Virus record (IMG/VR): IMGVR_UViG_3300045996_000876
Span: 4,869-68,868 of that record
Direction: 5' to 3' (one strand)
DNA from: a virus
Length of the DNA stretch: 64,000 nt
The position numbers and the translations under genes were made by a program. The notes under the pieces are model-generated. The model worked only from the letters and a program-made list of their open reading frames with translations, did no database searches and was not told the DNA's origin. Within the stretch, counting starts at the first letter, position 1, and every line of letters begins with the position of its first letter. Of this stretch, positions 1 through 64,000 are shown piece by piece.

Positions 1-322
1 GGATGTCGCGGAGCAGGCTACGCGGATGGCGGAGCGGGCGCAGCAGGACGCCCAGCTGGATGACGCTCCGGAAGGGAAGCTGCGGGTGGTCGGAACTATC
101 CTGACCATCAAGACCGTAGAGAGCGCGTATGGCGTCACGACGAAGTGCCTCTTGCTGGTCGAATCGCCCGCGAAGTTCAAGCTGTGGGTGACCCTCCCCA
201 CCTCCCTCTCCGGTACGGAGCGCGGCCAGAAGGTCGCCATGAACGTGACGGTGGAACGGTCGAAGGATGACAGCAAGTTCGCTTACGGCTCTCGCCCGAC
301 GAAGGGTGAGGTGATCGCGTGA
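1..322 (+). CDS. hypothetical protein, probably 5'-truncated (possible OB-fold C-terminus)
   Basis: Frame is open from position 2 through the stop at 322; beta-strand-rich C-terminus. Confidence 0.55.
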   Translation, partial: DVAEQATRMAERAQQDAQLDDAPEGKLRVVGTILTIKTVESAYGVTTKCLLLVESPAKFKLWVTLPTSLSGTERGQKVAMNVTVERSKDDSKFAYGSRPTKGEVIA

Positions 323-393
323 GCTGGGAAGAGTTCCGGAGGGTGGCGGTGTTCGCTGCCCTCCTATTTGCGGCAATGTGTTAGGAGATAGAC

Positions 394-1017
394 GTGAACG
401 CCAAAATCGAATGCCAAAGCGTGGAGGAGTTGGACCGCATCCTTGAGATTCTCCGCCCGAAGTTCCCGTGTGGTGGGTGTACCGCCTGCTGTACCGTCGT
501 GGGAGTGGAGGAGCTTGGGAAGCCTTACAACTGTAAGTGCGAGCACGACAACGGGAGCGGCTGCGCCATCTACGGGAAGCACCCCGGGAGTTGTAAGGAG
601 TTCGCGTGCTTCTGGGCCATGGGTATCTTCGGAGATATCCCGGAGCTACGCCCAGACCGCTTAGGAGTCTTGCTGGTACCCGCAGCCGTAGTGGAGACGG
701 AAGGGATGTCACTGGACATCTACCCAACCCGGGAGATAACCCCGCAAGAGCTTGATACCGTTCGGAAGCTCGCCAACTTGGTACTCGCGGAGCTACCGGT
801 ATTTGAGTGTATCCGATTGTACCCGCTAGGAGCGAAGGTTGGCGTGGGCTACCCTCTGCGTGACCCGTACCCTAAAACCTCCGCCACGGGCGGGAACGAG
901 TTTGCCACCATAGATTCTAACCACTTCGTCCGGTACTGGATTGGCGCGTCACCGCTCCCGCCCGCTCCGTACGACCCGCCATACCGCACCGGGCAGAACC
1001 TCGATGTTACCGGATAG
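394..1017 (+). CDS. Cys-cluster protein (YkgJ-like metal-chelating domain)
   Basis: CGGCTACC...C...CAIYGKHPGSCKEFAC pattern; AGGAG RBS before the GTG start. Confidence 0.65.
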   Translation: MNAKIECQSVEELDRILEILRPKFPCGGCTACCTVVGVEELGKPYNCKCEHDNGSGCAIYGKHPGSCKEFACFWAMGIFGDIPELRPDRLGVLLVPAAVVETEGMSLDIYPTREITPQELDTVRKLANLVLAELPVFECIRLYPLGAKVGVGYPLRDPYPKTSATGGNEFATIDSNHFVRYWIGASPLPPAPYDPPYRTGQNLDVTG

Positions 1018-1046
1018 GCCACTGGCATATTCTCTCCACGTGATGG

Positions 1047-1074
1047 TTGCCTTTCTTCCGTTTGACCGTATACT
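1047..1074 (+). promoter_or_regulatory. sigma70-type promoter
   Basis: TTGCCT-16 nt-TATACT upstream of AAGGAG and the ATG at 1137. Confidence 0.55.
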
Positions 1075-1136
1075 TTCTTGAATCCCCGCCCGATGTGGGC
1101 TAATAAAATTCTCTTACCTCTCTAAGGAGTTCTCAA

Positions 1137-3755: not shown

Positions 3756-4607
3756 ATGCTTACGTACCAAGACCTCTGCCGCCCGACCGACTACAAGGGT
3801 CAGCCCGTTCGCTACGCCCAGAAGAAGGAGGATGGGCTACGCTTGCTGGTCTCCATCCTCCCGGGTATCCACGATGAGAAGATCATCAGCGCGGTCACCC
3901 GCGAAGGGAAGACAGACCACGCGGTGAACCTTCTGAAGGTCGATTCGATCTGGACCAAGCTCGCAACGCTTCCCGTCTATACGCAGTTGGACTGCGAGAT
4001 TCACGTGCCCAACGTTCAGGCGACCAACGTCATCACCCACCTTCTCTCCGGCTCGAATTCGCTCAAGCTCTCTCCGTTCGCAATGCCCTTCTTCTATGGG
4101 CAAGACCTGCGCGGCTGGGAGCTTCCCGACGTCATTTCGAAGATGAGAGACTTGGGGCTGGACCCGGTACCGGTGACGCTCCTTACTGGGAAGCTTGAAG
4201 AAGCGCTCTGGCTCCAGCGGGCGAGGGATATGCGGGCGGAAGGCTTCGTGCTCAAGCAGCACCACTACTCCGGCTGGTTCAAGCTCAAGCCGGTTAAGAC
4301 GGCTGACTGCGTTGTGATGGGTTATACCCTTTCCGACTCTACAACCTACTTCGGAGACCTAAAAGCGGTCCAAGTAGGCGTGATTGATACGACCAGCAAG
4401 AAGCTGGTAGAGGTCGCCAGCTTAGGGACTGGCTTCTCTGCGGAGCAGAGACGGGCTTACGGACAGAAGCCTGGCGACCTCTTGGGCAAAGTGTGTGAGG
4501 TTCAATACGATTCGCTTGCTGGGCAAGGCAAGCTCAAGTTCCCGCGTTTCGTCGGGTGGCGGGTGGATAAGCTCGCGGAAGAGTGTACCAGTAAGCAGCT
4601 GGTGTAA
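3756..4607 (+). CDS. lig: minimal ATP-dependent DNA ligase
   Basis: KEDG adenylation motif, LDCE, EGFVLK, FKLK, OB domain ending in KFPRF. Confidence 0.9.
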   Translation: MLTYQDLCRPTDYKGQPVRYAQKKEDGLRLLVSILPGIHDEKIISAVTREGKTDHAVNLLKVDSIWTKLATLPVYTQLDCEIHVPNVQATNVITHLLSGSNSLKLSPFAMPFFYGQDLRGWELPDVISKMRDLGLDPVPVTLLTGKLEEALWLQRARDMRAEGFVLKQHHYSGWFKLKPVKTADCVVMGYTLSDSTTYFGDLKAVQVGVIDTTSKKLVEVASLGTGFSAEQRRAYGQKPGDLLGKVCEVQYDSLAGQGKLKFPRFVGWRVDKLAEECTSKQLV

Positions 4608-4615
4608 TCCGCCTT

Positions 4616-4747
4616 GGGAGCGTAGCTCAATTGGCAGAGCGGTGAACCCCAGTCTCTGGATGAATACCGAAAGGTACCGGAGAGCGAGATGGCCCCACAC
4701 TATCTCGCGGCGCTCATCGGTTGTTGGTTCGACTCCAACCGCTTCCA
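4616..4747 (+). ncRNA. tRNA-like RNA with a 68-nt structured insert replacing the anticodon loop
   Basis: Acceptor stem GGGAGCG/CGCTTCC+A; D arm GCTC-AATTGGCA-GAGC; T arm GTTGG-TTCGACT-CCAAC; anticodon stem GGTGA/TCATC encloses two hairpins. Confidence 0.75.
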
Positions 4748-4749
4748 TT

Positions 4750-4926
4750 AGACCCTCTTAGTTCTGAGCCGATTCTCTTGTGGACTCATAATCCCAACGC
4801 AGAATCCGATGCGACGGCGTGAGCCGTCCGAAGTCAAAGCCGTTGACGCGGTGGCGACTTGTCGAGCGTAGAACAACCCGGTCGTCAAACCGGGGTAACA
4901 GCAGTGAAAATCCGCTAGCTGGGTCT
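4750..4926 (+). ncRNA. candidate multi-hairpin ncRNA immediately 3' of the tRNA-like RNA
   Basis: AGACCC/GGGTCT closing stem; GATTCT/AGAATC arm with a CTCATAA loop; GACGGC-GTGA-GCCGTC; CCCGGT/ACCGGG. Confidence 0.5.
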
Positions 4927-4949
4927 GTTATTACTTTGAGGAGACTCCC

Positions 4950-5309
4950 GTGACTGAGCCAATCTTCGTTCCAACCGCGTACGATCCCGATGCCCCGCCG
5001 CTCATTGATCCCTCTGATCCTAACTATACGATGGTCAACTTCGTATATGTCTGTACGTCGTGTCAGACCGCGTTTGTCAAGGGAACCTACCCGCGAGACA
5101 TTGGCTACTCTTACTTCGCGCGGCTGGTTCGCGGAGAACGGTTCATTGAGCTCCCGGGCGGTGAGGGAGTCGCCCAGCAAGAGCCGCACGCCTGCCCTGA
5201 CCAGATCGGACATAAGGGTCCGGACCTCCTTGGAATCGCGGTTCTGGCCCAACTGAAGTACGCTGATCAACCACTCGTCATACGGAAGGCACCCAATGGG
5301 AACACGTGA
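4950..5309 (+). CDS. hypothetical protein
   Basis: GAGGAG RBS; CTSC motif. Confidence 0.6.
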   Translation: MTEPIFVPTAYDPDAPPLIDPSDPNYTMVNFVYVCTSCQTAFVKGTYPRDIGYSYFARLVRGERFIELPGGEGVAQQEPHACPDQIGHKGPDLLGIAVLAQLKYADQPLVIRKAPNGNT

Positions 5310-6318
5310 AGAGTTTGAGCACGGCTCGTCCGACGTTGAAGACTTCTTCTATTGGATCAACGAGCGTCACTCCATCTACCTGAAGCGGGCTGCTGGGCTC
5401 CCGAAGCCTTGGACCAACGACGAAGTTCTCCGGGACTACAAGTTCACCAATGCCTTCCGCGAGCTTGACCGTGGAACGGTCGCTCTCCGGGCGATGGAGA
5501 AGGATGTCGTGAAGCTGTGGCGGTTCGGCCATCAGCCGTTCGATGCCGCCGCGATCATATTCAATACCTTCTGGTACCGCTTCTTCAACCTGGACATCCA
5601 CGCGTACAGGCTGGGGATGTGCGACTACGAAACGCTCCAGACGTATATCTTCAAGAAGGTAGATGCCGACCAACAGGTGTTTACGGGTGCTCATATCGTC
5701 CGGGGTATCGGCTCCTCTCTCTCCGGAGCGGTAGGGAGCTTCAAGCACTACGATACGCTCCACGACCGTATCAAACGCGGGATGGGCGTGCTGAAGGCTT
5801 TTGACTACCTCGCCTTGGCCCATGAGATATGGTATGACCGTTACGAACTCGCGGCCAAGTTCGCGGAGTGTAAAACTCTCCAGCAAGCCTTCGACATTAT
5901 CCAAGGGTACTTCTTGCTGGGCGACTTCACCAGCTACGAACTCGTGTGCGACCTCCGCTGGACTCTTCTCTCGCACTGTACAGATATCCTGACCTGGGGC
6001 AACGTCGGCAACGGCGCAGTACGCGGGCTGAAGCGGCTCGGGCTGAAGCCAACTTCGGAGTCGATGGTCTATCTGTGGATGGAAGCTCCGGAGTATCTGA
6101 GCCCGGATGTCCGGTCTCATCACATCGCTAGCTACAGTGACGCCTTCGTTCCGACCAACCCAGTTCATATGAAAGACTACCTGCGGGACTGGGTTGGGCT
6201 CACTACGTTCCCGCCGTTTGAAATCCGCGAAATTGAACATTCTCTGTGCGAGTTCGACAAATACATTCGGGCCAAGTCGGGACAGGGCAGACCGCGTTCC
6301 AAGTATGACGGGAGATAG
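5296..6318 (+). CDS. 5-hydroxymethyl-pyrimidine DNA kinase helical-domain protein (aGPT-Pplase1 family)
   Basis: FFYWINERHSIY...PWTNDEVLRDYKFTNAFRELDRGT N-terminus; GNGAVRGL; EIEHSLCEFDKY C-terminus. Confidence 0.85.
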   Translation: MGTREEFEHGSSDVEDFFYWINERHSIYLKRAAGLPKPWTNDEVLRDYKFTNAFRELDRGTVALRAMEKDVVKLWRFGHQPFDAAAIIFNTFWYRFFNLDIHAYRLGMCDYETLQTYIFKKVDADQQVFTGAHIVRGIGSSLSGAVGSFKHYDTLHDRIKRGMGVLKAFDYLALAHEIWYDRYELAAKFAECKTLQQAFDIIQGYFLLGDFTSYELVCDLRWTLLSHCTDILTWGNVGNGAVRGLKRLGLKPTSESMVYLWMEAPEYLSPDVRSHHIASYSDAFVPTNPVHMKDYLRDWVGLTTFPPFEIREIEHSLCEFDKYIRAKSGQGRPRSKYDGR

Positions 6319-6321
6319 ACT

Positions 6322-6558
6322 ATGCCGGTGAGTCCCTACGCTCCTCCGCCCGGTTATATTGACGTGAAGACCTTCGCGAAGCTGGTGAACCGCGACAAGG
6401 ATTTCATCCACAAACTTACGCGAATCAATATGATCCCAACACTGTCGCGTGGTCCGAAGCGGCGATATATCGCTCAGCATTACGTGGCGAAGTTCCCGCA
6501 GATTCTCGAAAGTTACAAGCTTTCTTCCAATGCTCGTTACACAGGAGGTACGCGGTGA
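6322..6558 (+). CDS. small putative DNA-binding protein (excisionase/MerR-like HTH)
   Basis: YIDVKTFAKLVNRD...IP...RRYI pattern. Confidence 0.5.
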   Translation: MPVSPYAPPPGYIDVKTFAKLVNRDKDFIHKLTRINMIPTLSRGPKRRYIAQHYVAKFPQILESYKLSSNARYTGGTR

Positions 6559-7139
6559 TATACGATCTGAGAGGAACAAACGGCTCTGGGAAGTCTACCA
6601 TTGTTTTCGAGATGATGAAGGTGTTCGAATTCGCTGAGCATCCGTACCCGTTCGGGAGCACCGACAAGCCGGATTACTTCTTCAACGAGTGCCGGGCGCT
6701 GAACCTTATCGTCATCGGGAAGTACCGGACGCAGTGCGGCGGCTGCGATGGGATCACGTCGCAGGACCGTATTACCTCCGCGTGCCGGCACTGGGCTCTC
6801 GTGGAGGGTAGGAACGTCATCATTGAGGGCTCAATCGTCGCGAGCGTATTTGACCGCTGGAACAAGCTCGCGATCCAGGCCAACGACGATTACACGTTCT
6901 GCTTCCTGGACACGCCCGTTGAAGTCTGTATCGAGCGGGTGAAGAGTCGGAGAGCGGAAGCGAACAACACCGATGTCTTCGACCCGTATAAGACGCTGGT
7001 GCCCCGCTTCGGACAGATCAACCGTGTCTGGGCGAAGTGCCTGGACGCTAAACGCAAGTGCGCAGTTATCGAACACCAGCGAGCGTATGCCTCCTTCATG
7101 GAGTTGTACAATGCGACGCACCGTAGAGCCGTGGACTGA
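6555..7139 (+). CDS. P-loop nucleotide kinase of base-hypermodification clusters
   Basis: LRGTNGSGKST Walker A; GKY...GGCD; IIEG; CIERVKSRR lid; gene context. Confidence 0.85.
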   Translation: MIYDLRGTNGSGKSTIVFEMMKVFEFAEHPYPFGSTDKPDYFFNECRALNLIVIGKYRTQCGGCDGITSQDRITSACRHWALVEGRNVIIEGSIVASVFDRWNKLAIQANDDYTFCFLDTPVEVCIERVKSRRAEANNTDVFDPYKTLVPRFGQINRVWAKCLDAKRKCAVIEHQRAYASFMELYNATHRRAVD

Positions 7140-7159
7140 CGACCCGATAGAAGGCGGCG

Positions 7160-8173
7160 ATGGCGACCTTGAGGACAACGATGACTTTGAATTTTGAGCT
7201 CACTTCGAACGAACTGATGAACGACTTCTTGGACTACTCCAAGTACAGCATCTGGTCGAAAGACGTTGACCCGGTGTACGACGTTCTCAAGGCCATCCAC
7301 CGCTTGCTGGGCTACGGAGAAGGAGACCGCGACAACCGGGTGAAGCATACGTTCTGGTATCTCTCCTGGTACAACCTGATGTCGGCGCAGGAGGCATGGA
7401 ACTACGTGACGGAGACCGGTGACGAGCTTCCGGATTACAACCTGTGTAAGCTCCCGACCGGGATAGAGCGCCGCGGATTCCGAGACGGCTACCAGATGAT
7501 GAAGCATATGGAGTCGCTCCAAAAGATCGCGGCTGACTGGAACAACGCTCATAACAGGGACGGCCAAGGCTGGTTTGACGACTGGATCGCGGCAGGCTTC
7601 ACGAACAACGCCAAGGTCAACTGGGGTATCGCCTATGAACGGCTCCAGACGGTCTACGGGAACGGACGCTGGGCAGCATATAAGGGCTGCGAACTTCTCC
7701 AGAAGGTCTGCGGGCTAAACTTGGAACCTCCCGATATGGGACACAAGGGAAGCTCCGGACCGCGCAAGGGTCTGGCGATGCTCTTTCGGGATTGTCCCGC
7801 TCACGGCGATCAGAGCGCGCAAGCCATCGAGCTACTTGACCGGATGAGTGACGACTTGCTGGATCATATGCGCAAGTGGTATAGCGACAACCCCGTTGTC
7901 CAAGACCTAGGCGTGGTGGAAACTTGTCTCTGCGACTTCCACTCGATGGCTCACGGCGGGTATTACGTCGGGCACGACATCGACCTGATGCAGGAAGGTG
8001 TCAGCAAGTCAAAAGCTCCGCAGGAGGTGAAAGACCTTCTGTGGAACGCGCGAGCGGTAGCGCTGCCGCACCACTACCTTGGCGAGCTTGGCGGCTGGAA
8101 CGGCGTGGACAAAGATCGCAAGCGAGCTTACCGTGATCAGAACGTGATCATGATTCGCGGAGAACTGGAATGA
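7160..8173 (+). CDS. amino acid:DNA transferase (aGPT-Pplase2 / AADT family)
   Basis: DVDPVY, ERRGFR, GNGRWAAYK, ETCLCDF, YYVGHDI motifs; gene context. Confidence 0.85.
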   Translation: MATLRTTMTLNFELTSNELMNDFLDYSKYSIWSKDVDPVYDVLKAIHRLLGYGEGDRDNRVKHTFWYLSWYNLMSAQEAWNYVTETGDELPDYNLCKLPTGIERRGFRDGYQMMKHMESLQKIAADWNNAHNRDGQGWFDDWIAAGFTNNAKVNWGIAYERLQTVYGNGRWAAYKGCELLQKVCGLNLEPPDMGHKGSSGPRKGLAMLFRDCPAHGDQSAQAIELLDRMSDDLLDHMRKWYSDNPVVQDLGVVETCLCDFHSMAHGGYYVGHDIDLMQEGVSKSKAPQEVKDLLWNARAVALPHHYLGELGGWNGVDKDRKRAYRDQNVIMIRGELE

Positions 8174-8319
8174 AGAAGCTCCTCCGAAAGCTCTTGGACT
8201 TCTTCCTGGGTCCGAAGTGCGAGTGTTGTGGTGCTCGCGATGAGACCGTGGCGTACGCTTCAACCCCGGGCGGGTGCGGCGAATTGTGCGATGACTGTGT
8301 AACTGAACTGATGGAGTGA
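8170..8319 (+). CDS. small Cys-rich protein (49 aa, below the ORF track cutoff)
   Basis: ATG overlaps the upstream stop; CECC...CDDC; fills the gap to the next gene. Confidence 0.5.
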   Translation: MKKLLRKLLDFFLGPKCECCGARDETVAYASTPGGCGELCDDCVTELME

Positions 8320-8322
8320 ATC

Positions 8323-9150
8323 GTGATCAACCATAACACCCCAATCGAAGCCTACGAAGTTCACGGCAGGGAAGTTCTCGTCAAGCGTGACGACCTGTGC
8401 GCAGACCCGCCCGCACCGTCATTGGCGAAGATTCGCGGAGCGTACGCCCATATCAAGGAGCTCAAGCAATCCGTCATCGGGAACCTCGATGCGTCCCACT
8501 CGCGGAACGGCTGGGTTGTCGCTGCGGTCTGTAAGATGCTCGGCAAGCACTGTGTGGGGTACTACCCGCAGAGCGTCAAGGATCGCGGCGTCAAGGATCA
8601 GCAAAAGAAGATTCTGGAACTGGGCGGCTCGATTGTTGCCCTGCCAGCCGGCCGCTCCGCGATCCTGTACGCCACGGCTCGGAAGCACCTGGCCGCGACG
8701 TTTGCCGACAGCTACCTGATGCCCAACGCTCTCAAGCTGAATGAGACCGTCTGGGAGGTAGCGAAGGAGGTAGTTGACTCGCGGGATAGCCTTCCGGAGT
8801 CGGGCAGCATCGTTATCCCTGCGGGAACCGGTACAATTGCGTCAGGAGTGGTGGAAGGCTTGATCCGTCTGGGCAGGGCGGAGTCTTACACCATCTGCGT
8901 TCACCTGGGCTATACGCGGGCACGGGAAGCGGTGGAGAGCTATATCCAGTCGAATCTCTGCCGCCCGATACCGGGCTTGCTGTACGTCGATGAGGGCTGG
9001 GATTACTCCGATGAGGCCAAGGAGACGGCGGTTGCGCCATTCCCTGCGTGTACTTACTATGAACTGAAGGCGTGGGACTGGATGACCCGCCCGGAAGTGC
9101 TACGGACGTTCAAGCCGGGACCGGTGGTGTTCTGGAATAGCGGCAATTAA
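8323..9150 (+). CDS. PLP-dependent enzyme, fold type II (candidate on-DNA decarboxylase)
   Basis: VKRDDL...KIRGA PLP lysine; IPAGTGT phosphate loop; FWNSG; gene context. Confidence 0.85.
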   Translation: MINHNTPIEAYEVHGREVLVKRDDLCADPPAPSLAKIRGAYAHIKELKQSVIGNLDASHSRNGWVVAAVCKMLGKHCVGYYPQSVKDRGVKDQQKKILELGGSIVALPAGRSAILYATARKHLAATFADSYLMPNALKLNETVWEVAKEVVDSRDSLPESGSIVIPAGTGTIASGVVEGLIRLGRAESYTICVHLGYTRAREAVESYIQSNLCRPIPGLLYVDEGWDYSDEAKETAVAPFPACTYYELKAWDWMTRPEVLRTFKPGPVVFWNSGN

Positions 9151-9257
9151 TACTCCGGACTGTGCGGAGCTCATCGGGGCTTTGGTGGACTACCGATCCA
9201 CGACCTATATTGCTCACTCAGTGACCAGCCGGGAGAGTAGCGGCATTTGGAGACTCT

Positions 9258-9443
9258 ATGAGACATTTCCTCCTTCGTATCGCGGTACGCTTCCGGCTCG
9301 TGCGGCTCTCCGACTGGTTGATCAACACGTGCGACCGGGAGGGTGGCGAGTGTTCCAAGTGCGGAGCGACTTGCTGCCCCTATGGCGACCCGCTTCACTT
9401 CCACCACGATGGTTGTCCCTCTTGCTGGCAGGATGAGCTATGA
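9258..9443 (+). CDS. small Cys/His-rich protein
   Basis: GGAG RBS; CSKC..CC...HFHHDGCPSC. Confidence 0.55.
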   Translation: MRHFLLRIAVRFRLVRLSDWLINTCDREGGECSKCGATCCPYGDPLHFHHDGCPSCWQDEL

Positions 9444-9700
9444 AAATCCGTGGATGGAAGTATCGCAAGTCTCACAGCGTAGTTCTCTCCGTGGACAACG
9501 GCTCGTTGATCGGGTTCTGTCTACAGCCTGAGCGGGACTTACATCTATTACACCCGGGTTGGACTCCGGAAAGAATGGACGTCCACGAGCACTTAGAAAA
9601 GATGACTGAGGAGGAGGTAAGCAAAGCGTTAGAAGTCTTACAACGGCTCAACCAAAAGATGGTTCGTGAGCTAATTTCTAGAGGAGACACTGATGGATAA
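9440..9700 (+). CDS. hypothetical protein
   Basis: Overlapping start/stop with both neighbours. Confidence 0.55.
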   Translation: MKIRGWKYRKSHSVVLSVDNGSLIGFCLQPERDLHLLHPGWTPERMDVHEHLEKMTEEEVSKALEVLQRLNQKMVRELISRGDTDG

Positions 9701-11099: not shown

Positions 11100-11406
11100 G
11101 ATCATTATGACGATACGTCCGACACTCGCTGTGAAGATGAAACGCGGGAAAGGTCGCCAGACGCGATATTACGGCAGGGTATACCCGGTGGTCCTGTCGA
11201 GCACAACCTGCCCACCAGTCCCTAAACTCGTGCGCACGCTCTGCTCTTGCTGGACCAAGACTTTTCCTCCTATTCTCCCGGCTCCGAACGATGGCGTGAA
11301 GGCGCGGTGTCGCGGTCCGCCCGGTTCTCCTCCCTTGTCTTGAACTCGTTGGTTAGCGGCGGGCAGCTTGGCTGTAGGTTCAAACCACCCGCCGCGCTTA
11401 ACAACT

Positions 11407-11955: not shown

Positions 11956-12262
11956 CCGCGACTTCATGGCCCTGACCCCGGGAGTCTTCACTCAGACCTT
12001 CAAGCCCGACGTTCAGGAGGGAGATATCGCGGTGTTCGTCTGCGGTGCGGACGAGACCGTGGTGGCCCTGGGCGTCGTCCGGGAGATTGAAGACGGCAAC
12101 GGGAACAAGCGTGGCCTGACCGGCAAAGACGCGGAGCGGTTCAAGGTCCACTTTGACCCCGTGACCCGGATGGAGTTTGGACCGGTTCCGCACCCCGTAC
12201 CCACGCCGGAGCGGGTACCGGAGCGGCGGGTACACCGGGTTGGCTCGCGGCGCAAATCCTAG
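11903..12262 (+). CDS. hypothetical protein
   Basis: AGGAG RBS; host-like codon usage. Confidence 0.6.
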   Translation: MAKTKDKRFRMIPVGMIDRDFMALTPGVFTQTFKPDVQEGDIAVFVCGADETVVALGVVREIEDGNGNKRGLTGKDAERFKVHFDPVTRMEFGPVPHPVPTPERVPERRVHRVGSRRKS

Positions 12263-51338: not shown

Positions 51339-51361
51339 CAACTAACGCAGGCAGGCTAACT

Positions 51362-52286: not shown

Positions 52287-52320
52287 ATTCGCTTCTGACC
52301 TAACTCATTTGGAGAGCCAT

Positions 52321-53319: not shown

Positions 53320-53349
53320 CCGCTCCCTCAGCATCTAGGTCGGCACAAG

Positions 53350-53389
53350 ACTGCCGCCGCTACCACGCGTAGCGGCGGCAGTTCTTTTC
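53350..53389 (+). terminator. intrinsic terminator
   Basis: ACTGCCGCCGCTAC/GTAGCGGCGGCAGT followed by TCTTTTC. Confidence 0.85.
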
Positions 53390-53393
53390 AGGG

Positions 53394-56288: not shown

Positions 56289-56290
56289 CC

Positions 56291-57043
56291 ATGTTCAATC
56301 TCTCAAAAGCCTTACGGGATTTCCATACCAAGAATAGCTTCCCCATCGACACCCGCTTGAAGGATCAGCGAGACGAAGCAGCAAACCGCGAGCTAGCGGA
56401 GTTGGGTGAGCGGCTCTGTGGGGAGTCGGAACGTATCAAACAGCCCGCGCTCCTGCTACAAGCGAAGGGAGATGAGCGGCTTTACCGGGCGCACCTCATG
56501 ATAGAGGAGCTTGGGGAGACGCTCATTGAGCTCGCAAGACAGAACTACGTCGGGGTTGCCGACGGGCTTGGCGACCTCCAGTACGTCGTGGAGGGAACCG
56601 CGTCAGTGTTCGGGATTCCGATGCCGGAGGTTCTGGAAGAGATTCACCGGTCGAACATGTCCAAGAAGAAGCGTGACCCGATTACCAATCCACGGATGAG
56701 AGATAAAGGTCCAAACTACTCTCCGCCCGATATTGTCGGAGCAATTGTTCGCGGGAAGCAGCGAATGAATTGGGAAGCGACAATGGCTGCGAATGAAGAG
56801 CTATCCGTGGAGCTACAGCGGAGCTTTGAGCGGACCGTGGACGGGGAGTTCACAGTCCATCCCGATAAGTGGCCGCTCGTAAGTCCGTTCAAAGATGACT
56901 ACGCAGCTGATGGGCTCCCGCCTGATTTAAGAAATGGGTTGACGGCGGATGGACACGGCTTCACCAACAACGACGGAGAACAGGTATGCGTCTGCGGCGG
57001 ACGCGGCTGTGTCTGTTGTAACACTAACGGAGACCCTAAATGA
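56291..57043 (+). CDS. all-alpha (MazG/PRA-PH-like) NTP pyrophosphatase
   Basis: LMIEELGE...ADGLGDLQYV...EIHRSNMSK...KGPNYSPPD. Confidence 0.85.
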   Translation: MFNLSKALRDFHTKNSFPIDTRLKDQRDEAANRELAELGERLCGESERIKQPALLLQAKGDERLYRAHLMIEELGETLIELARQNYVGVADGLGDLQYVVEGTASVFGIPMPEVLEEIHRSNMSKKKRDPITNPRMRDKGPNYSPPDIVGAIVRGKQRMNWEATMAANEELSVELQRSFERTVDGEFTVHPDKWPLVSPFKDDYAADGLPPDLRNGLTADGHGFTNNDGEQVCVCGGRGCVCCNTNGDPK

Positions 57044-58074
57044 TCCCTGTCTTTGAATCGGTCGATGAGCTCTGGCTCCACGCCGCTAACACCGTCATCG
57101 CCTACGGAGAAAACACCGGCTCCCGCGATGGAGAAAGCCGTGAGGTGCTCGGCTACTGCGGACGGCTCCTTGACCCGCGTTGTAACTTCCTGTTCAACCC
57201 GGTCCGCAAGATGTCGCCCAGCTACGCAGCCGTTGAGACGATGTGGTATCTCTCCGGAACGGACGACACGACGTTACTCCAGCAATACGCTCCGCAGTAC
57301 AAGCGGTTCACGGAGGATGGTATCCACGCCTTTGGAGCGTACGGATACCGCTGGGCGGCTGACCTACCGTTCCGGGTTGCGTTCGCAATGGCCTTCGCTC
57401 CGGACTTAGTGAACCTGGACCGTCCATGGCCCAGCGGGAAGTCTATCGGACCGCGAAGCCAGCTGGAAGTCTTGATGCTCCTCCTAAAGGAGAAGCCTGA
57501 GACCCGCCAAGCGGTACTTGCTCAGTGGAACGGTGGAGACCTGGTTTGCGCCGTGGAAGGGAACAAGCGAGACCTGCCCTGTACGCTGAACCTGAGCTTC
57601 ATCGTTCGCGGCGGAAAGCTCAATATGATCGCGACGATGCGCAGTAACGATCTGTGGCTCGGAACGCCCAACGACGTTTTCTGCTTCACGATGATACAGC
57701 AGGTCGTGGCGAATAACCTTGGGCTGGAGCTAGGCTGGTACCAACACAACGTTACGTCGCTCCACTACTATCTCCGCAATGAGGAGAAGCTCAAGCAGGC
57801 GGCATCCGTCGGTGCGTTCGGTATCGAGCAGCTACTGACGACCTGTAACGGCTCGCGGCTGAACGACTTCCTGGAGGATATGCTCACCCAGGAGCGTCAC
57901 AACCGTAATCACGAGATTGCCGGACCAGAGTGCTTTGGTATCCAAGACAATACTCTTCCGGGCTTGCTGATTCTCATGGCCGCTACCCGGTGGGCAAAGA
58001 ATCGTGAAGACCTCCTGAAGCGTTTTGATTCGAAGGTTCTGCGGAAGTTCATTGAGGAGTTCCACCCGTGTTGA
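57040..58074 (+). CDS. thymidylate-synthase-family dNMP (hydroxy)methylase with the dCMP-type Asp
   Basis: GAYGYR, TRQAV, DLPCT catalytic Cys, MRSNDLWLGTPND, SLHYY. Confidence 0.88.
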   Translation: MIPVFESVDELWLHAANTVIAYGENTGSRDGESREVLGYCGRLLDPRCNFLFNPVRKMSPSYAAVETMWYLSGTDDTTLLQQYAPQYKRFTEDGIHAFGAYGYRWAADLPFRVAFAMAFAPDLVNLDRPWPSGKSIGPRSQLEVLMLLLKEKPETRQAVLAQWNGGDLVCAVEGNKRDLPCTLNLSFIVRGGKLNMIATMRSNDLWLGTPNDVFCFTMIQQVVANNLGLELGWYQHNVTSLHYYLRNEEKLKQAASVGAFGIEQLLTTCNGSRLNDFLEDMLTQERHNRNHEIAGPECFGIQDNTLPGLLILMAATRWAKNREDLLKRFDSKVLRKFIEEFHPC

Positions 58075-58646
58075 TCATCGAAGGTTCCGACAATCTTGGG
58101 AAGACAACGGCGTGTAAGCGGCTGGTTGAGATCGTAGCGCATGAGCGATGTTTCGCTCCCGCCCGCTATGTCCATATGTCCCGCCCAAACTCCTCCTTCA
58201 ACTTCTTCACGCACTACCGCGACATGATCAGCCGGTACGCGGTTCAGGACCGCTTCCACCTTGGCGCTCTCGTCTGGCACGATAACGTCATGTCTAAGAC
58301 GCGGCTCCGCCTGATCGAGTCCTGGTTGGCTGAGGTGGGCTCCGTCGTCATCGTATTGATTGCGAGCGATGAGAAGTGGTACGAAGATCACCTGGAGAAG
58401 CAGCCCAAGGAGGAGATGTTCAGCCGTGGGCGTATCCGGGCGGGCAACCGGGAGTTCGCTGAGCTAATCGCAACGGACTACGCGCGTGCGGACTTCGTTC
58501 ACGACGTATCCAAAGACGGATTCTTGACGGACCGCCATCTCAATACGTATTTGGATGAGTGGTACGGTCGTTTATTCCAAGTTGAAAGGGCGGAAAAGTA
58601 TGATCCACTTATTGGCGTGCCGAACACTCGCGGCGGCAATGGTTGA
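58068..58646 (+). CDS. deoxynucleoside monophosphate kinase
   Basis: IIEGSDNLGKTT; QDRFH. Confidence 0.82.
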   Translation: MLIIEGSDNLGKTTACKRLVEIVAHERCFAPARYVHMSRPNSSFNFFTHYRDMISRYAVQDRFHLGALVWHDNVMSKTRLRLIESWLAEVGSVVIVLIASDEKWYEDHLEKQPKEEMFSRGRIRAGNREFAELIATDYARADFVHDVSKDGFLTDRHLNTYLDEWYGRLFQVERAEKYDPLIGVPNTRGGNG

Positions 58647-59103
58647 TGAGATTGACCAGTGCGAGGTCTGGGCCAAGGAGCGACAGACGTGCCTGCGTAA
58701 GGCAGTTGGTGCCTCCATCGTCAGCCCGAACCTTGATGGCTCGTTTACGCGGATGATCCGGACCCACAACGGACCTTCCGCGAACGGACACCAATGCTCG
58801 AACATCGTAGGTGGGTGCGGCTGCTCCCACTCCGAACCGCGAGCGATCTTTGAGATGATGAGAGGCGGCTGGCTCGCTCGCGGCCACGTTCGGAAGCTGA
58901 TCCTGCTCTGTACCTACTCTCCCTGTACGAACTGCGCGAACATCATCAACGACTCCGCCATAATCAACGGAGTCGTCTACCGACACCTCACCCAGCACGA
59001 TACTCTCGGTGTAGACTTGCTGGTCAACAACGGGCTTGACGTCGTCACCACGGACGAGCTCATGAACGGAAGCAAAGATGATCTTATTGGACAATGGCGT
59101 TAG
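58600..59103 (+). CDS. dCMP deaminase-family protein
   Basis: TCLRKAVGA, HNGP, HSE, SPCTNC zinc motifs; start could alternatively be 58639. Confidence 0.85.
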   Translation: MIHLLACRTLAAAMVDEIDQCEVWAKERQTCLRKAVGASIVSPNLDGSFTRMIRTHNGPSANGHQCSNIVGGCGCSHSEPRAIFEMMRGGWLARGHVRKLILLCTYSPCTNCANIINDSAIINGVVYRHLTQHDTLGVDLLVNNGLDVVTTDELMNGSKDDLIGQWR

Positions 59104-61117
59104 GATGGTTGAGACGGTCGAGGAGCTTCCGCAGCTTCTGTTCGCTGCGGAACTTTTCCTTGACGTCGAAACGCAACGCGTATACGACGGGTTGTACCCG
59201 TGGAAGGGAGACCGCATCTGCGGCGTGGGCGTGACGATCAACGATGACCCGCAGACGTGGTACATCCCGGTACGCCATACCGTCGGGGAGCGGTATAACA
59301 TCCCCATCGAAGCTTTCCAGAAGTGGCTCAAGGATACGGTCTGGACCGCGCAGGCCTGGATCAACCATAACCTTCCGATTGACGCGGTATTCTGTCACTT
59401 TGACGGAGCGACCTGGGACAAGTTCACTGGCCGCGCGATAGACACGCTGACGCTCTCCAAGGTCCACGACTCCGACCGCTTCGGGCACGGCTTGAAACAG
59501 CTTTGCCGCGAGTGGCTTGGGATGGAGATGTCGGAGGAGCGGGAGATCAAAGCCTATCTGGACGGGATAAAGTCCAAGTCTTACGCGGACGTTCCACCCG
59601 ATAAGCTCGGTGCGTACGCGGGTATGGACGTCATCGCCAACCGGAAGCTGTACCGATTCCTCCAAGCGAACCGTCCACCGCGCGATCGGACCGACAAGCC
59701 GGGCATCCCCGATATCTGGGAGACGGAGATTGGGCTTCAAGCCGGTCTCATAGACATCGAGATACGCGGACTCCAGGCTAACCGCAATGAGCTTCGCTTA
59801 GAGCAGCGGACGAGTCTGTCCAAAACTATTCAGTGGTGCGATGACGTGGCCCGCGTCACTGGGCGGGAGTTCACGAACAGCAACCAGTGTAAGTACGATA
59901 TGCTCATCAACCGGCTCCAGCTACCGGTTCTCGCGACGAAGTGGGAGAAGGATGAGTACACCGGGAGGAGATACGATACTGGGCGGCCAACCTTCGATAA
60001 GAAGGCAATGGCGTTGTACGAAGTTCACCCACACGTTACGTCCAGCAAGAAAGCTACCTTCATCGTCAAGAACCTCCGCGCACTCGCTACGGAGGGTCAG
60101 TACCAAGGGCTGTTTCTCATCCCGTTCCAGGAGCTCATGGATGACGATCAGATCATCCACCCGACGTACAACCCGGTAGTCCGCACCGGGCGGATGTCCT
60201 GTAAGCGCCCGAACTCGCAGCAGCAGAATAAGCGATCCAAGAAGCTCATCCACCCGCGTAAAGGCTACGGGTTCATCTCGTGCGATTACAGCCAGATCGA
60301 ATATCGGCTCATTGCCCATTACACCAATGACCCGGATACAATCCGCGCGTACAACGAGAATCCGGATATTGATTACCACCAGTGGGTAGCGGACCTGATC
60401 GGCGTCACTCGCAAGGCGGGCAAGACACTCAACTTCGGTATGGCGTACGGAGCGGGCAAGAAGAAGGTCGAAAGCGAACTGGCCGCGAATCCCGACATCA
60501 TCGCTCACGTATCGGAGATGATCACCGACCAGGTCAAGGCGGGCGGAGTCTCCGAAGCGGACCGGGATGAGCTCTTCCACCAGATGTGTAAGGCGCACGC
60601 TGCGAAGGTCTATCAGGCGTACCACGAGAAAATGCCCGGCATCCGACGTACCGCGAAGGAGGCGGATATCATCTGCCGCCGTCGTGGATACATCTTCAAC
60701 GCGTACGGGCGGAGACGCCACTTGCCTCAGACCCATGCCCATAAGGCTTTCAACTCGCTCGTCCAGGGCTGTGCGATGGACTTGATCAAGGAGCGGATGC
60801 TCTACCTGATGCCCCGGTATAACGCGTGGATGCGGGAGCGGGACATCCATATCGTCGCGAATGTCCACGATGAGGTTCTGTTCGAGGTACCGGAAGCGCT
60901 CTTGCTGGACCGGACCGTTCACGACTACCTGATCCAAGCCTTGGAGACGCCCACCATCAAGTTCCGGGTACCAATCCGGGTAGGTCTGGGCGTGTCGAAG
61001 AAGCACTGGGCGGAAGCGGCGGGTGATGACGCGATTCTCTCGGATGGCCGAGTTATCGACCGTTCGAAGGCGGAATTGCCGGAAGGGGCAGAGGTCGTGG
61101 CGGGAAAGCTTCGCTAA
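59078..61117 (+). CDS. polA: family A DNA polymerase with 3'-5' exonuclease
   Basis: LDVET; TGRMS; CDYSQIEYR; RKAGKTLNFGMAYG; NVHDE. Confidence 0.95.
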   Translation: MILLDNGVRMVETVEELPQLLFAAELFLDVETQRVYDGLYPWKGDRICGVGVTINDDPQTWYIPVRHTVGERYNIPIEAFQKWLKDTVWTAQAWINHNLPIDAVFCHFDGATWDKFTGRAIDTLTLSKVHDSDRFGHGLKQLCREWLGMEMSEEREIKAYLDGIKSKSYADVPPDKLGAYAGMDVIANRKLYRFLQANRPPRDRTDKPGIPDIWETEIGLQAGLIDIEIRGLQANRNELRLEQRTSLSKTIQWCDDVARVTGREFTNSNQCKYDMLINRLQLPVLATKWEKDEYTGRRYDTGRPTFDKKAMALYEVHPHVTSSKKATFIVKNLRALATEGQYQGLFLIPFQELMDDDQIIHPTYNPVVRTGRMSCKRPNSQQQNKRSKKLIHPRKGYGFISCDYSQIEYRLIAHYTNDPDTIRAYNENPDIDYHQWVADLIGVTRKAGKTLNFGMAYGAGKKKVESELAANPDIIAHVSEMITDQVKAGGVSEADRDELFHQMCKAHAAKVYQAYHEKMPGIRRTAKEADIICRRRGYIFNAYGRRRHLPQTHAHKAFNSLVQGCAMDLIKERMLYLMPRYNAWMRERDIHIVANVHDEVLFEVPEALLLDRTVHDYLIQALETPTIKFRVPIRVGLGVSKKHWAEAAGDDAILSDGRVIDRSKAELPEGAEVVAGKLR

Positions 61118-61409
61118 CCTGGCCCGGATACCCCAGTTTGTCACGCCTGGTGGGGTAGGCGTGGCGTTTAGAAATTAAATGGCCCGCTAGCCAGCCGAAA
61201 CTGCGGCGGCACCGCGATTATTCGCGGAAACGGCTTTACTTTCCCGCCGCGAGCCGGTAGCCTACCCTCCCGCTTTCCCGCTCCGACACCTCAGGACAGT
61301 AAGACAGTAGAATTATCGCCACGTGACCCGCGAAGGTCACCACCACCAATCAGTAACCTACCCTCTGGCCCAGACTTACAAGTGGGTGGAAAATACTTCC
61401 ACCAACCAC

Positions 61410-61438
61410 TTGCCCAGAGGCCAATGTGGTGGTATACT
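61410..61438 (+). promoter_or_regulatory. sigma70-type promoter with GGCCAATGTGG in the spacer
   Basis: TTGCCC-17 nt-TATACT. Confidence 0.7.
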
Positions 61439-61482
61439 CCTCTCAGTGGTCGGGTGTCCGACCGGTAGTCAAGGAGATAGAA

Positions 61483-62790
61483 ATGGCGAAGATGATTGCT
61501 CACGAAAAAGGTCGCACCACCAAGCTTACCGTCAACCAGCTGCTGGAGAGCATCTTCAAGCTCAACGAGAATCCCAGCCGCTCCGATAAGTTCACCGACA
61601 CCAAGATCGTAGGCTACATTCAGAACGAGTTCGACAGCCCCACCGCTGTGGACGTAGCGGAGGTCAGCCACCGCCGTCGTCAGTACAACTACGGGATGGG
61701 CTTCTGGAAAAATCGCGGCGCAGCCTACCGGAACGAAGAAGACAGGCACCTCAGCGACCGTCCGTTCAGCTACGCGTACGACACCAACGGCTCGCGTCTC
61801 CCGGAGACGGCACCCCGCGCTCCCCGTTCCGCTCCCTCCGCCCAGAGCCAGATGGACTCCGATACCCTCCGCCAGCTGGTTCAGCAACAGGTGGCCGATG
61901 AGCTCGCGGAGCGGGAACTGGTCGAGCGCGACCAGGTGACCGCGCTCGTGGCCAAGGAGCTTGCGAAGGAGCGGCCATCTATCACGATCAATGTTCCCGA
62001 ACGGAAGCACGTGGTCAAGATCGCAGGGAACCGCTGCCATAAGGCTTTCCAGAAGGTTCTCACCAAGGTCCAAGCGGGCGTGCCCGTCTTGCTGGTCGGG
62101 CCAGCGGGTAGCGGCAAGACGTTTTTGGCCGCCCAGGTGGCGGAAGCACTTGGCCTTCCCTTCACCTTCAACTCGATGTCCGAAGGCACCAAAGAATCCG
62201 ACCTCCTTGGCCGTACGCTCCCCGACGAAAAAGGCAACTGGTCGTATCAGCCCGCTCCCTTCGTTTCGACCTACACCAAGGGTGGCGTCCACCTGCTCGA
62301 TGAGATTGACGCGGCTGACCCGAACTTGCTGGTCCAGATCAACGCCGCAATCGCCAACGGCAAGCTCTCTATTCCCTTCCGGAACGACCCCACCCCGCTC
62401 CCGCGTCACAAAGACTCGGTGATCCTCGCAGCCGCCAACACGTTCGGTACCGGAGCCAACCGCCAGTACGTCGGGCGGAATCAGCTGGACGCAGCAACCC
62501 TCAACCGGTTCACGATGGGCACCGTTGAGATCAACTACGACACCGACCTCGAATCCGAGATAGTCAAGGCAGTACTGGGCGGAGAGATCACCCCGGATGG
62601 TGAGTCGCTCCTCCGCTGGGCTTGGACCACTCGCGACCGTATCAATGCCGCTAGCCTGCGTCGTTTGATGTCCTCCCGTAACATCGAGGATGGGGCCAAG
62701 CTCCTCCGGGTAGGCGAATCCCTCGCTGAGATCAAGGCTACTTACTTCTCCGGCTGGACCCAGGACGAAAAAGCGAAGGTGGCCGCTTGA
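61483..62790 (+). CDS. MoxR/CbbQ-like AAA+ ATPase
   Basis: GPAGSGKT, LLDEIDAA, AAANTFGTGANRQYVGRNQLDAATLNRF. Confidence 0.9.
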   Translation: MAKMIAHEKGRTTKLTVNQLLESIFKLNENPSRSDKFTDTKIVGYIQNEFDSPTAVDVAEVSHRRRQYNYGMGFWKNRGAAYRNEEDRHLSDRPFSYAYDTNGSRLPETAPRAPRSAPSAQSQMDSDTLRQLVQQQVADELAERELVERDQVTALVAKELAKERPSITINVPERKHVVKIAGNRCHKAFQKVLTKVQAGVPVLLVGPAGSGKTFLAAQVAEALGLPFTFNSMSEGTKESDLLGRTLPDEKGNWSYQPAPFVSTYTKGGVHLLDEIDAADPNLLVQINAAIANGKLSIPFRNDPTPLPRHKDSVILAAANTFGTGANRQYVGRNQLDAATLNRFTMGTVEINYDTDLESEIVKAVLGGEITPDGESLLRWAWTTRDRINAASLRRLMSSRNIEDGAKLLRVGESLAEIKATYFSGWTQDEKAKVAA

Positions 62791-62815
62791 CTCGCGGCCA
62801 ATGTGGAGGTAGAGT
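62787..62815 (+). promoter_or_regulatory. sigma70-type promoter with GGCCAATGTGG in the spacer
   Basis: TTGACT-17 nt-TAGAGT; the -35 box overlaps the upstream stop codon. Confidence 0.7.
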
Positions 62816-62842
62816 ACGGGGTAGTTAGTCAAGGAGATAGAC

Positions 62843-63718
62843 GTGAAGAAGACACTGACCAAAGAAGCTGATGGGGTATCGCGGGTGGAGTTCTCTGGCG
62901 TGGCGGAGCTTATGGCCTACGCCAACGATGGGGAGCGGAACCTGAACGTGGCGGAGAACATCGAACCGCTCCGCCACTGGCGGGAGTACGAAGGAGACCG
63001 GTGGGTCAACTACGCCACCCGGAAGAAGCTCACGGAGTGGATGACCTCCGCTCCTTCCCACCTGTTGGAGCGGGTAGAACGGTTCAAGGAGCGCATCCAA
63101 GATAAGGTCGCTCTCCCGACGAAGCAACGGCGCAAGCGGATTCGCCGTCAGGAGACCGGAGACGAGCTTGACCCGGTAGCCTGGGTCCAGCGTGACCCGA
63201 ACGGCTGGGACGACACCAAGAAGATTAGCGTGCCCCGGAACAGCATCAAGATCGGATTCAACTACAGCACCCCAGGTTCGATGCCGGCAGAAGCCTTGCT
63301 GGTCCGTGGCGCCATCGTCGCGGCTCTGGCTGACCTCCTCTCCCAGCAAGGGAATAACGTGGAGGTGGTAGGATTCGACACCGGGTATGGACTGGGTGAC
63401 TGTGCCTCCTTCGTAATGACGACAGTAATCAAACCGATGGAAGCGCCGCTTGATCTCTCCTCCCTCTGCGTAGCGGCTGCTGAGATCGGATTCTACCGCG
63501 TGGTAGTGGTACCCGCCTCAATCGTTTTCGCTTCGGCCAAGTGCCACTCCGGTCCGTGCGCATGCGGTCCGCTCCCGTCAGCGGAGAAGAAGTCAATGGA
63601 TATCGTAGTCGAATGGAGACAGACCAGCGAGGATGCCGCTGTTGAGTACGTGCTCGAACAGCTGGCCCGCTTTGGAACCCACCATAACACGGAGGTAGAG
63701 TCGGATGAACTTTTCTGA
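62843..63718 (+). CDS. VWA-like partner of the MoxR ATPase
   Basis: GDELD; degenerate MIDAS-like NYSTPGS; RGA..AL.D.L; adjacent to the AAA+ gene. Confidence 0.6.
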   Translation: MKKTLTKEADGVSRVEFSGVAELMAYANDGERNLNVAENIEPLRHWREYEGDRWVNYATRKKLTEWMTSAPSHLLERVERFKERIQDKVALPTKQRRKRIRRQETGDELDPVAWVQRDPNGWDDTKKISVPRNSIKIGFNYSTPGSMPAEALLVRGAIVAALADLLSQQGNNVEVVGFDTGYGLGDCASFVMTTVIKPMEAPLDLSSLCVAAAEIGFYRVVVVPASIVFASAKCHSGPCACGPLPSAEKKSMDIVVEWRQTSEDAAVEYVLEQLARFGTHHNTEVESDELF

Positions 63719-64000
63719 GCAACCGTTTTGGAAGTGGCGGGAGGATAGGAGTCAGACGGCAACCACGGAGGAGCGAGACACCCAGAAGGTCAGAGCGTAC
63801 CGGGCGGAGGAGTTCCAGCGGGAAGTTCCCGCCGTTACCCAACTGGCCGACATCGCGGAGGTCCAGGCCTACATCAACCAGTTGATCGTCACCTCCTTCT
63901 TCCAGTTCCGCTTCCCGCACGTCAAGACTATCGCAGCCACCCGTACACCTGACACCGAGTCCGCCAAGGGAGGGTTTGTACCGGGCGGAGCTTGCTGGGT
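63705..64000 (+). CDS. hypothetical protein, 3'-truncated
   Basis: GGAGG upstream; frame open to the window end (MNFSEQPFW...RDTQKVRAYRAE). Confidence 0.55.
   Translation, partial: MNFSEQPFWKWREDRSQTATTEERDTQKVRAYRAEEFQREVPAVTQLADIAEVQAYINQLIVTSFFQFRFPHVKTIAATRTPDTESAKGGFVPGGACW

Follow-up and report, generated by a model that had tools for sequence, protein, structure and literature searches.

A dispersed octamer in a soil phage genome

The window analysed here is a stretch of 64,000 nucleotides, bases 4869-68868 of one 68,868-bp record (IMGVR_UViG_3300045996_000876); coordinates below are those of the window unless they are marked as genome coordinates. Its source is a lytic-looking tailed phage from soil, with 58% G+C and, by our own gene calling, nearly all of its genes on the + strand. 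Packaging, structural and tail genes lie here together with replication genes and a cluster for thymidine hypermodification. Our subject is an octamer, CTTGCTGG, that recurs from one end of the window to the other, mostly inside these genes. A preliminary description had drawn attention to it as a selected cis signal and had suggested that it may be an unusually long recognition site for the phage primase.

An exact search of the window found 47 copies of CTTGCTGG on the + strand (span 151..63998) and 18 on the - strand (span 4393..63350), the latter appearing as CCAGCAAG on the + strand. The + copies start at 151, 669, 2806, 3842, 4515, 5913, 7303, 7855, 9421, 11246, 11784, 13606, 15673, 17089, 17899, 18659, 19798, 20633, 21879, 22143, 23163, 24483, 25523, 26100, 29688, 31753, 33387, 37022, 37882, 39670, 41051, 41950, 43671, 44489, 46205, 47202, 48705, 51065, 51893, 52939, 55842, 59016, 60901, 62088, 62325, 63295 and 63991; the - copies lie at 4393, 5174, 5880, 11742, 13785, 16473, 18874, 26303, 31735, 40924, 45440, 47179, 48499, 48795, 52069, 54863, 60042 and 63343. 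Every + start given in the preliminary description is an exact match, and its count of at least 17 reverse complements becomes 18. The + copy at 63991 lies in a repeat at the end of the record and so duplicates a copy upstream of the window. In 100 dinucleotide-preserving shuffles of the window the octamer occurred 1.98 times on average and five times at most; none of the 100 reached the observed 65. Across all 68,868 bp of the genome no other octamer is as common: there are 49 + and 20 - copies (69 in total), and the runner-up among unrelated octamers has 24. Counting both strands, the density is about one copy per kb.

Three codon-aware null models were applied, each with 300 genome-wide shuffles, and the means that they gave include copies in unshuffled sequence. 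Shuffling synonymous codons within genes yielded 7.9 +/- 1.4 + copies (maximum 14) and 3.9 +/- 1.6 - copies (maximum 9), against the observed 49 and 20; the - copies by themselves are thus about fivefold enriched (20 vs 3.9). A shuffle that kept the protein, the codon usage and the dinucleotides gave 17.1 + copies (maximum 25) and 9.6 - copies (maximum 15), and a codon permutation gave 7.6 and 2.5. The enrichment survives all three, codon-preserving and dicodon-type nulls alike, even the dinucleotide-keeping shuffle reaching at most 25 + copies vs the 49 observed. By our gene calls, 31 of the 49 + copies read TTG-CTG (Leu-Leu), 11 read CTT-GCT-GG (Leu-Ala-Gly), one reads TGC-TGG (Cys-Trp) and six are intergenic, while the - copies mostly read CAG-CAA (Gln-Gln, 13) or AGC-AAG (Ser-Lys, 5). 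The motif had been said to fall in all three reading frames; all three do occur, although their use is very unequal.

Selection was also measured as occupancy, the filled share of those coding positions, over the whole genome, at which the encoded peptide permits the word. The octamer occupies 42 of 70 protein-compatible positions in the + orientation (60%) and 19 of 45 in the - orientation (42%), compared with 43 of 1688 (2.5%) for 40 control words made by permuting the same letters, the best of which reached 9.5%. With so many of the available positions filled, both orientations must be strongly selected. The + copies nevertheless exceed the - copies by 2.45:1, largely because Leu-Leu and Leu-Ala-Gly outnumber Gln-Gln and Ser-Lys in genes that point one way. 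The strand asymmetry behind the earlier lagging-strand argument is therefore largely one of coding opportunity. The codon-aware shuffles and the occupancy back the view that the octamer is a cis signal under selection rather than a codon or dicodon effect, and we conclude that CTTGCTGG is a positively selected, DNA-level signal, present genome-wide at the above density in both orientations and mostly intragenic.

The motif has sharp edges. Over 12 bases on each flank there is no conservation except a weak C two bases downstream (36 of 68 copies), and one-mismatch neighbours are about as frequent as expected save at position 8, where the + strand has A six times, C four times and T four times. 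A sharp 8-mer without flank conservation is in the manner of sites that a protein reads one base at a time.

The + copies are evenly spaced. The coefficient of variation (CV) of their spacing is 0.56, compared with 0.97 +/- 0.13 in simulations, and none of 20,000 simulations was as low (P<5e-5); the under-dispersion relative to Poisson spacing, which the preliminary description had proposed as a check, is therefore present. Gaps shorter than 500 bp number two where 14.4 were expected, and no gap exceeds 3635 bp, where the simulations gave a mean maximum of 6151. When the null is restricted to the 70 compatible sites, the CV loses significance (0.79 vs 0.905, P=0.17), but the shortage of short gaps is still significant (2 vs 8.5, P=0.0008). 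Fourteen + strand words depart from the octamer at position 8 alone (CTTGCTG followed by A, C or T; 8976..57970), starting at 8976, 9370, 16933, 28001, 28898, 30610, 34215, 35738, 39262, 42681, 49901, 54029, 54875 and 57963, and the eight gap variants previously pointed out are all among them. These variants favour the gaps, lying on average 827 bp from the closest exact copy, vs 472 bp for random points (P=0.0008); adding them brings the CV to 0.48, vs 0.68 when random points are added (P=0.0002).

The - copies leave the gaps unfilled and sit beside + copies, six of the 20 within 60 bp (1.7 expected, P=0.005) and 14 within 215 bp. The usual layout of a pair is CCAGCAAG-N(6-34)-CTTGCTGG. Inverted pairs of this kind are found in the gene for the helical domain of the 5-hydroxymethyldeoxyuridine (5-hmdU) DNA kinase (CCAGCAAG-N25-CTTGCTGG, 5880..5920), in the sigma-factor gene (CCAGCAAG-N34-CTTGCTGG, 11742..11791), in the gene upstream of the tape-measure gene (CCAGCAAG-N10-CTTGCTGG, 31735..31760) and in the tail host-specificity gene (CCAGCAAG-N15-CTTGCTGG, 47179..47209). 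One more, in the primase-helicase gene, has a variant arm (CCAGCAAG-N4-CTTGCTGT, 54863..54882), and a pair at 63295..63350 has the opposite arrangement (CTTGCTGG-N40-CCAGCAAG). From an occupancy of 60% and even spacing along 69 kb it follows that some reader of the phage DNA exerts strong and continuing selection.

Gene content and ends of the phage

The structural genes include a large terminase (18518..19999, + strand), which served to find relatives, a portal, a P22-type coat protein and a tape-measure-sized protein of 1468 aa. The tail tip resembles that of gene transfer agents (GTAs), with DUF2460, phiJL001 gp84/BR0599, NlpC/P60 and Rcc01698-like proteins. For replication the phage encodes an SNF2 helicase, a family A polymerase and a 964-aa zinc-ribbon/Toprim primase-helicase (53394..56288, + strand) with a CHC2 zinc ribbon, a Toprim domain and a C-terminal helicase-like part; this is the protein that the preliminary description put forward as the reader of the octamer. 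A sigma factor is encoded as well. Searches of Pfam and PHROGs found no recombinase, exonuclease, single-stranded DNA-binding protein or RecBCD inhibitor among the phage proteins, many of which have no family.

A thymidine hypermodification cluster occupies 5296..11099 on the + strand. It consists of the 5-hmdU DNA kinase, as a helical domain (5296-6318) and a kinase domain (6555-7139), an amino acid:DNA transferase (7160-8173), a pyridoxal phosphate enzyme (8323-9150) and a radical S-adenosylmethionine enzyme (9693-11099), all on the + strand. A MazG-like gene (56291-57043) and a thymidylate-synthase-like gene (57040-58074) fit the same pathway, and a dCMP deaminase gene likewise belongs to the set. 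The phage DNA thus probably carries modified thymidines, and the octamer has three T. Three further + strand genes encode enzymes that could act on the DNA of the phage: an N6/N4 DNA methyltransferase (2522-3307) and an ATP-dependent DNA ligase (3756-4607), both candidate accessory enzymes for marking or nicking, and an HNH-type endonuclease-like protein (14935..15342; phrog_93, E=3.4e-8), a candidate nickase.

The final 227 bp of the record (63774-64000) repeat genome positions 1-227 with one mismatch. This may be a true terminal repeat or an assembly overlap, and the right end of the record falls 2 nt past an octamer copy. In two soil metagenome runs, the contigs contain 62% and 50% of the words sampled from a 9-kb stretch, and contigs aligned to positions 1-20000 show zero differences; these are assembled contigs only, without read ends, and so carry no information on nicks or termini.

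Several other elements were seen in passing. A conserved element of about 75 nt has five copies, one at 61427-61500 and four upstream of the window, at -3841, -2500, -1179 and -610 (genome 1028, 2369, 3690 and 4259). It combines a -35-like box (CTTGCC, GTTGCC or GTTGAC) and an extended -10, TGGTATACT, with a potential hairpin, CTCAGTGGTCGG...CCGACCGG, after which come a strong ribosome-binding site, GGAGATAGA, and a start codon; the five copies are probably early promoters for the host RNA polymerase with a common 5' leader. Two A+T-rich intergenic regions, 16600-16760 and 48900-49240, have in common the string tcttatttAGATAGATAGATAGATAGATATAG with an (AGAT)n microsatellite. They stand at module borders, before the packaging genes and before the replication genes respectively, and are candidate origins or middle/late regulatory regions. 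Across the window GCGGCTC has 42 + strand copies and a single - strand copy, and AGCGGGAAG has 11 vs 0, which may reflect codon or peptide usage, the genes all running one way.

Octamers in related phages

Terminase searches returned no relative above 57% identity in viral contigs or 60% in metagenome contigs, and the phage collection gave no megablast match. Each of 36 terminase-related viral loci has zero or one copy of CTTGCTGG in total, both strands counted. The nearest named records are MW202657, which has the replication and tail modules in common with this phage and whose primase, 46% identical, is the nearest named homologue, and MW202621. Neither has a dispersed over-represented octamer, and CTTGCTGG is enriched in neither; G414, G415 and phage M6 have no dispersed over-represented octamer either. 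M6 has the same thymidine-modifying enzyme set, and we therefore reject hypermodification as a sufficient cause.

A complete relative of 59.7 kb, G411 (loci L365-L367), whose terminase is 51% identical, has an octamer of its own. The word is AACGGTTG, with 24 copies on the top strand and 12 on the bottom strand, vs 2.8 expected and vs 6.5 and 1.6 in a synonymous shuffle. Its top-strand copies are again even (CV 0.54, P=0.0009), none lying closer than 500 bp to the next. The genes of G411 form two opposed blocks, and the top strand has the majority in both, so the signal does not follow transcription. Of the compatible positions, 8/23 and 9/26 are filled in one block, 11/31 and 3/25 in the other (35%, 35%, 35% and 12%). 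The position-8 variants of the G411 word do not fill its gaps, showing that gap filling is not general. G411 encodes a ligase, a primase-helicase 29% identical to that of our phage, a family A polymerase, an exonuclease, a Sak4-like annealing protein and a RuvC-like resolvase, and a tblastn comparison found no gene common to the two phages yet absent from the motif-free MW202657. The GC skew of G411 reveals a strand asymmetry independent of transcription, the top strand being C-rich, which does not discriminate between models. At about 7.1-22.3 kb it has QueC-, QueD- and QueE-like enzymes with a GTP cyclohydrolase, and its DNA probably contains 7-deazaguanine; non-canonical bases would then be present in both phages with a private octamer, but M6 shows that hypermodification is not enough by itself.

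A third, partial case is the L011/L010/L398 family (65% G+C), in which AACTTGAA occurs nine times on one strand of the 15.3-kb L011 and not at all on the other; its shorter core, CTTGAAA, has one copy on that other strand. Words over-represented in L009, L019, L022, L031, L036, G414 and G415 were set aside as local promoter-like elements, iterons or tandem protein repeats rather than dispersed signals. MW202657 (locus L037) has a weaker and different kind of word bias: CTCGCAG and its complement number 42 and 34 in 50 kb, vs about 30 expected, mostly on the sense strand, with nine copies clustered at 16.2-17.8 kb. A separate observation concerns L001-L004 and L006 (terminase 55-57% identical, 43-46% G+C, 5.4-12 kb), from which GCTGG/CCAGC is wholly absent where a rough base-composition estimate gives about five per strand; this suggests an avoided restriction site or another counter-selected word in that sub-lineage.

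Candidate readers of the octamer

Whatever reads the octamer must value both orientations, gain little from a second copy nearby, tolerate a change at position 8, and differ or be absent among relatives. Our best guess, which we hold tentatively, is that the octamer is a Chi-like signal read by a host helicase-nuclease. A host enzyme that processes double-strand ends, of the RecBCD or AddAB type, would track along linear or broken phage DNA and, on meeting the octamer, would switch from degradation to recombination. Dense copies in both directions would protect any exposed end, and would also supply recombination for circularisation or concatemer formation. The host nuclease as reader, and this benefit, are inferred, whereas the observations concern the octamer itself: that it is selected, how strongly, on both strands, at regular spacing and with unconserved flanks.

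A Chi-like site had been named before as an alternative to the primase site; it now has a phage precedent and is ranked first, although it is unproven. Zheng et al. 2025 (PMC12315714) report that in phages P1, LLS and MD8 no octamer is more frequent than the Chi of the host, with 50 copies in P1 (1 per 1.9 kb), 23 in LLS (1 per 1.86 kb; 20 in one orientation) and 32 in MD8 (all on one strand); these phages are described as being without recombination modules, and the authors infer selection, not codon usage. The present octamer resembles theirs in being exact, asymmetric, the most frequent of its genome, intragenic and present beyond codon usage, at a frequency near their range of about 1 per 1.3-1.9 kb. 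Pfam and PHROGs reveal no recognisable recombination module in this phage, many of whose proteins have no family; this would fit a Chi-like signal. In the first 50 kb of P1 we counted 15 Chi sites in one orientation and 12 in the other, and opposite copies lie near each other there, as they do here. Moreover, the scattered distribution of the trait among relatives, with differing words (AACGGTTG, AACTTGAA) or none, fits a signal determined by the host better than a property of the core replisome. Aligned in register, CTTGCTGG agrees with the Chi of E. coli, GCTGGTGG, at five of eight positions, and it includes GCTGG, which E. coli Chi has in common with that of Pseudomonas, GCTGGCGC, as given by Pavankumar et al. 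2018 (PMC5959072); this is weak evidence.

A number of observations weigh against a Chi-like signal. Sites in Chi-rich phages are clustered (CV 1.39 in MD8, 1.27 and 0.99 in P1), whereas they are even here (0.56) and, at one per kb on both strands, denser. The exonuclease, Sak4-like and RuvC-like genes of G411 run contrary to the rule that Chi-rich phages lack a recombination module. Modified thymidines might hinder recognition by a host enzyme. Finally, the searches for a host found no specifically enriched genome among those sampled. The tail host-specificity protein has no relative in genome contigs, and an alignment of DUF2460 proteins gave 80 loci, mostly alphaproteobacterial and GTA-like. 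We searched 406 bacterial genomes, 401 of them evenly drawn Pseudomonadota and five chosen for GTA-like tails, a sample of one phylum and of well under 1% of species; the 401 include the unpublished G393, on which the conclusion does not depend. The five genomes with GTA-like tails, 3.7-5.5 Mb in size, contain 93-184 copies each; a reversed control word is commoner in them. The densest of the 401 reach about 1 copy per 4.2-5.2 kb (at most about 0.24 per kb), a compositional effect: CTTGCTG is followed by G in a fraction of 0.26-0.46 in the roughly 65 genomes with the highest counts (35-42% in the top five), vs 0.78 in the phage, and in 100-kb samples of four such genomes CTTGCTGG does not rank with the top octamers. 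Nor is there strand skew in 400 kb of G276 (21 vs 22). The preliminary description had proposed looking for the same skewed motif in candidate hosts; no genome enriched for it was found in this sparse, one-phylum sample of 406. In viral contigs, the inverted-pair pattern CCAGCAAG-N5-35-CTTGCTGG gave at least 120 matches, and a limited scan of the matches listed revealed no unrelated phage enriched for CTTGCTGG. G005, with six copies in 7.3 kb, was considered as a second carrier and rejected: its family has 212 copies in 771 kb, and complete members have 12 vs 5.9 and 9 vs 5.8 expected from an order-3 Markov model. In the literature, titles and abstracts containing the octamer as a whole word concern a promoter-motif method in yeast and plants, a Salmonella comparison and human cells, and none of these titles and abstracts describes a phage signal.

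The reader might instead be encoded by the phage. One broad form of this idea, possible although we would not call it probable, is that some phages of this terminase lineage each have a private address word (CTTGCTGG here, AACGGTTG in G411, AACTTGAA in the L011 family), spaced evenly at about 1 per 1-1.7 kb, occupying as much as 60% of its protein-compatible positions and read by phage machinery of shifting specificity. The word might be where the replisome exclusively primes or loads, or the mark by which a self/non-self system recognises DNA to be spared. A narrower form, which we regard as somewhat doubtful, invokes an accessory enzyme or DNA-binding protein that the phage encodes and whose private specificity evolves fast, be it a nickase, a self-marking enzyme or a structural, organising protein, for which the spacing gives every stretch of the genome a site. 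Motifs associated with nicks are a known class: in phage tf all 14 copies of TACTRTGMC are nicked (PMC3517423), and phage Rembedalsseter has 13 copies of WACTRTGAC, a word enriched in 61 related phages (9.0 vs 0.7 expected), with nick sites inside coding sequences at various positions (PMC11780129). Like the motifs of these phages, of T5 and of phiKMV-like phages, ours is a short exact word, at least tenfold enriched and scattered through coding sequence, in a phage that encodes a ligase. The ATP-dependent ligase is present in G411 as well, an HNH-type endonuclease and an N6/N4 methyltransferase are at hand in this phage, the different or missing words among relatives fit a variable specificity, and the near-equal selection of the two orientations fits recognition of double-stranded DNA; the end of the record 2 nt past a motif copy also agrees, as a single post hoc coincidence. 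Yet the known nick motifs lie on one strand, unevenly, at 13-14 per genome and throughout a family, whereas the 69 copies here are even, include 20 on the opposite strand and form a private word. If all copies were nicked, the six opposite-strand pairs 14-48 bp apart would become fragile staggered breaks, and 60% filling is hard to square with nicks that are dispensable in T5. The tblastn comparison, moreover, offers no gene that the two octamer-bearing phages have and MW202657 lacks, and no binding protein can be named.

Recognition of the octamer, or of its 7-mer core, by the DnaG/T7-type primase-helicase of the phage appears unlikely to us. It would give Okazaki fragments of about 1-1.4 kb, with the opposite-strand copies serving forks that travel the other way, and it is the best explanation of the even spacing with few short gaps (CV 0.56; 2 vs 14.4) and of the weaker position-8 variants that fill the long gaps. 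CTG at motif positions 5-7 is the E. coli DnaG triplet; with this, a zinc-ribbon/Toprim primase-helicase and Okazaki-like spacing, the case resembles sites of the DnaG, T7 and T4 type. Both phages with an octamer encode a primase-helicase and a family A polymerase, and the constant orientation of the G411 word across opposed blocks, evenly spaced, points to a polarity of the replication or packaging type rather than a transcriptional one. The comparison among relatives, however, weakens the idea: the primase of MW202657 is 46% identical and its genome has no octamer, while that of G411 is 29% identical and its genome has one, so that the need for a long site would have arisen twice. Both orientations are filled similarly (60% vs 42% here; 35%, 35%, 35% and 12% in G411), the clustering of - copies by + copies (6/20 within 60 bp) is unexplained by priming, and the position-8 variants of G411 leave its gaps open. 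Characterised primase sites, among the listings and abstracts that a non-exhaustive literature search covered, are 3-5 nt long and none is eight (5'-(G/T)2GTC-3' for T7, 5'-(G/C)GGA-3' in plants, trinucleotides in Aquifex); sites so short are too frequent by chance to need enrichment, whereas here eight positions are fixed, on both strands. An uptake- or packaging-type word, either the DNA-uptake sequence of a competent host or a preference of the phage in packaging or sorting its own DNA, seems to us very improbable. The uptake sequences of Haemophilus and Neisseria (the uptake signal sequences of Pasteurellaceae and the DNA uptake sequences of Neisseriaceae) are exact 9-12-mers at about one per kb, in both orientations, intragenic in several frames, with inverted pairs and a reported even spacing, all of which is seen here. 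They are, however, features of bacterial chromosomes kept by biased uptake, whereas the octamer belongs to a phage; among the 406 bacterial genomes there is no match and no density above about 0.24 copies per kb, although uptake sequences restricted to a family could be missed; and it is hard to see how a lytic-looking phage with modified DNA would gain a host uptake word. We know of no multi-site packaging signal of this kind. A functionless by-product of codon, dicodon or amino-acid usage, or of a repeated protein motif, might be suspected from the 31 of 49 + copies that encode Leu-Leu as TTG-CTG and from related 7-mers that are common in some bacteria for compositional reasons. We consider it refuted by the codon-aware shuffles, which all fall far short, and by occupancy (2.5% for controls vs 60% and 42%); six intergenic + copies, the several frames, the unconserved flanks and the non-random spacing speak against it too. 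Sigma-54 or sigma-70 promoters, terminators and RNA-level signals were also rejected, given the unconserved flanks, the intragenic copies in several frames, the enrichment on the - strand and the independence of the G411 orientation from transcription. The probability that remains belongs to readers that we have not thought of.

In summary, the finding is stronger than the preliminary description could know; its primase mechanism is possible, but it is not the best supported. As far as our searches show, within the literature covered, a private, evenly spaced octamer of high occupancy, with a different word in a relative, has not been previously described. Any phage genome can be screened for further cases by pairing a spacing test with the occupancy of protein-compatible positions. 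If a Chi-like signal read by a host helicase-nuclease is the true explanation, the phage tells us the Chi sequence of a soil host that is uncultured or unstudied, and the class of Chi-rich phages extends to lytic-looking phages with modified DNA. If instead the reader is encoded by the phage, the octamer would represent a genome-wide cis code of a new kind, with a specificity that varies from relative to relative.

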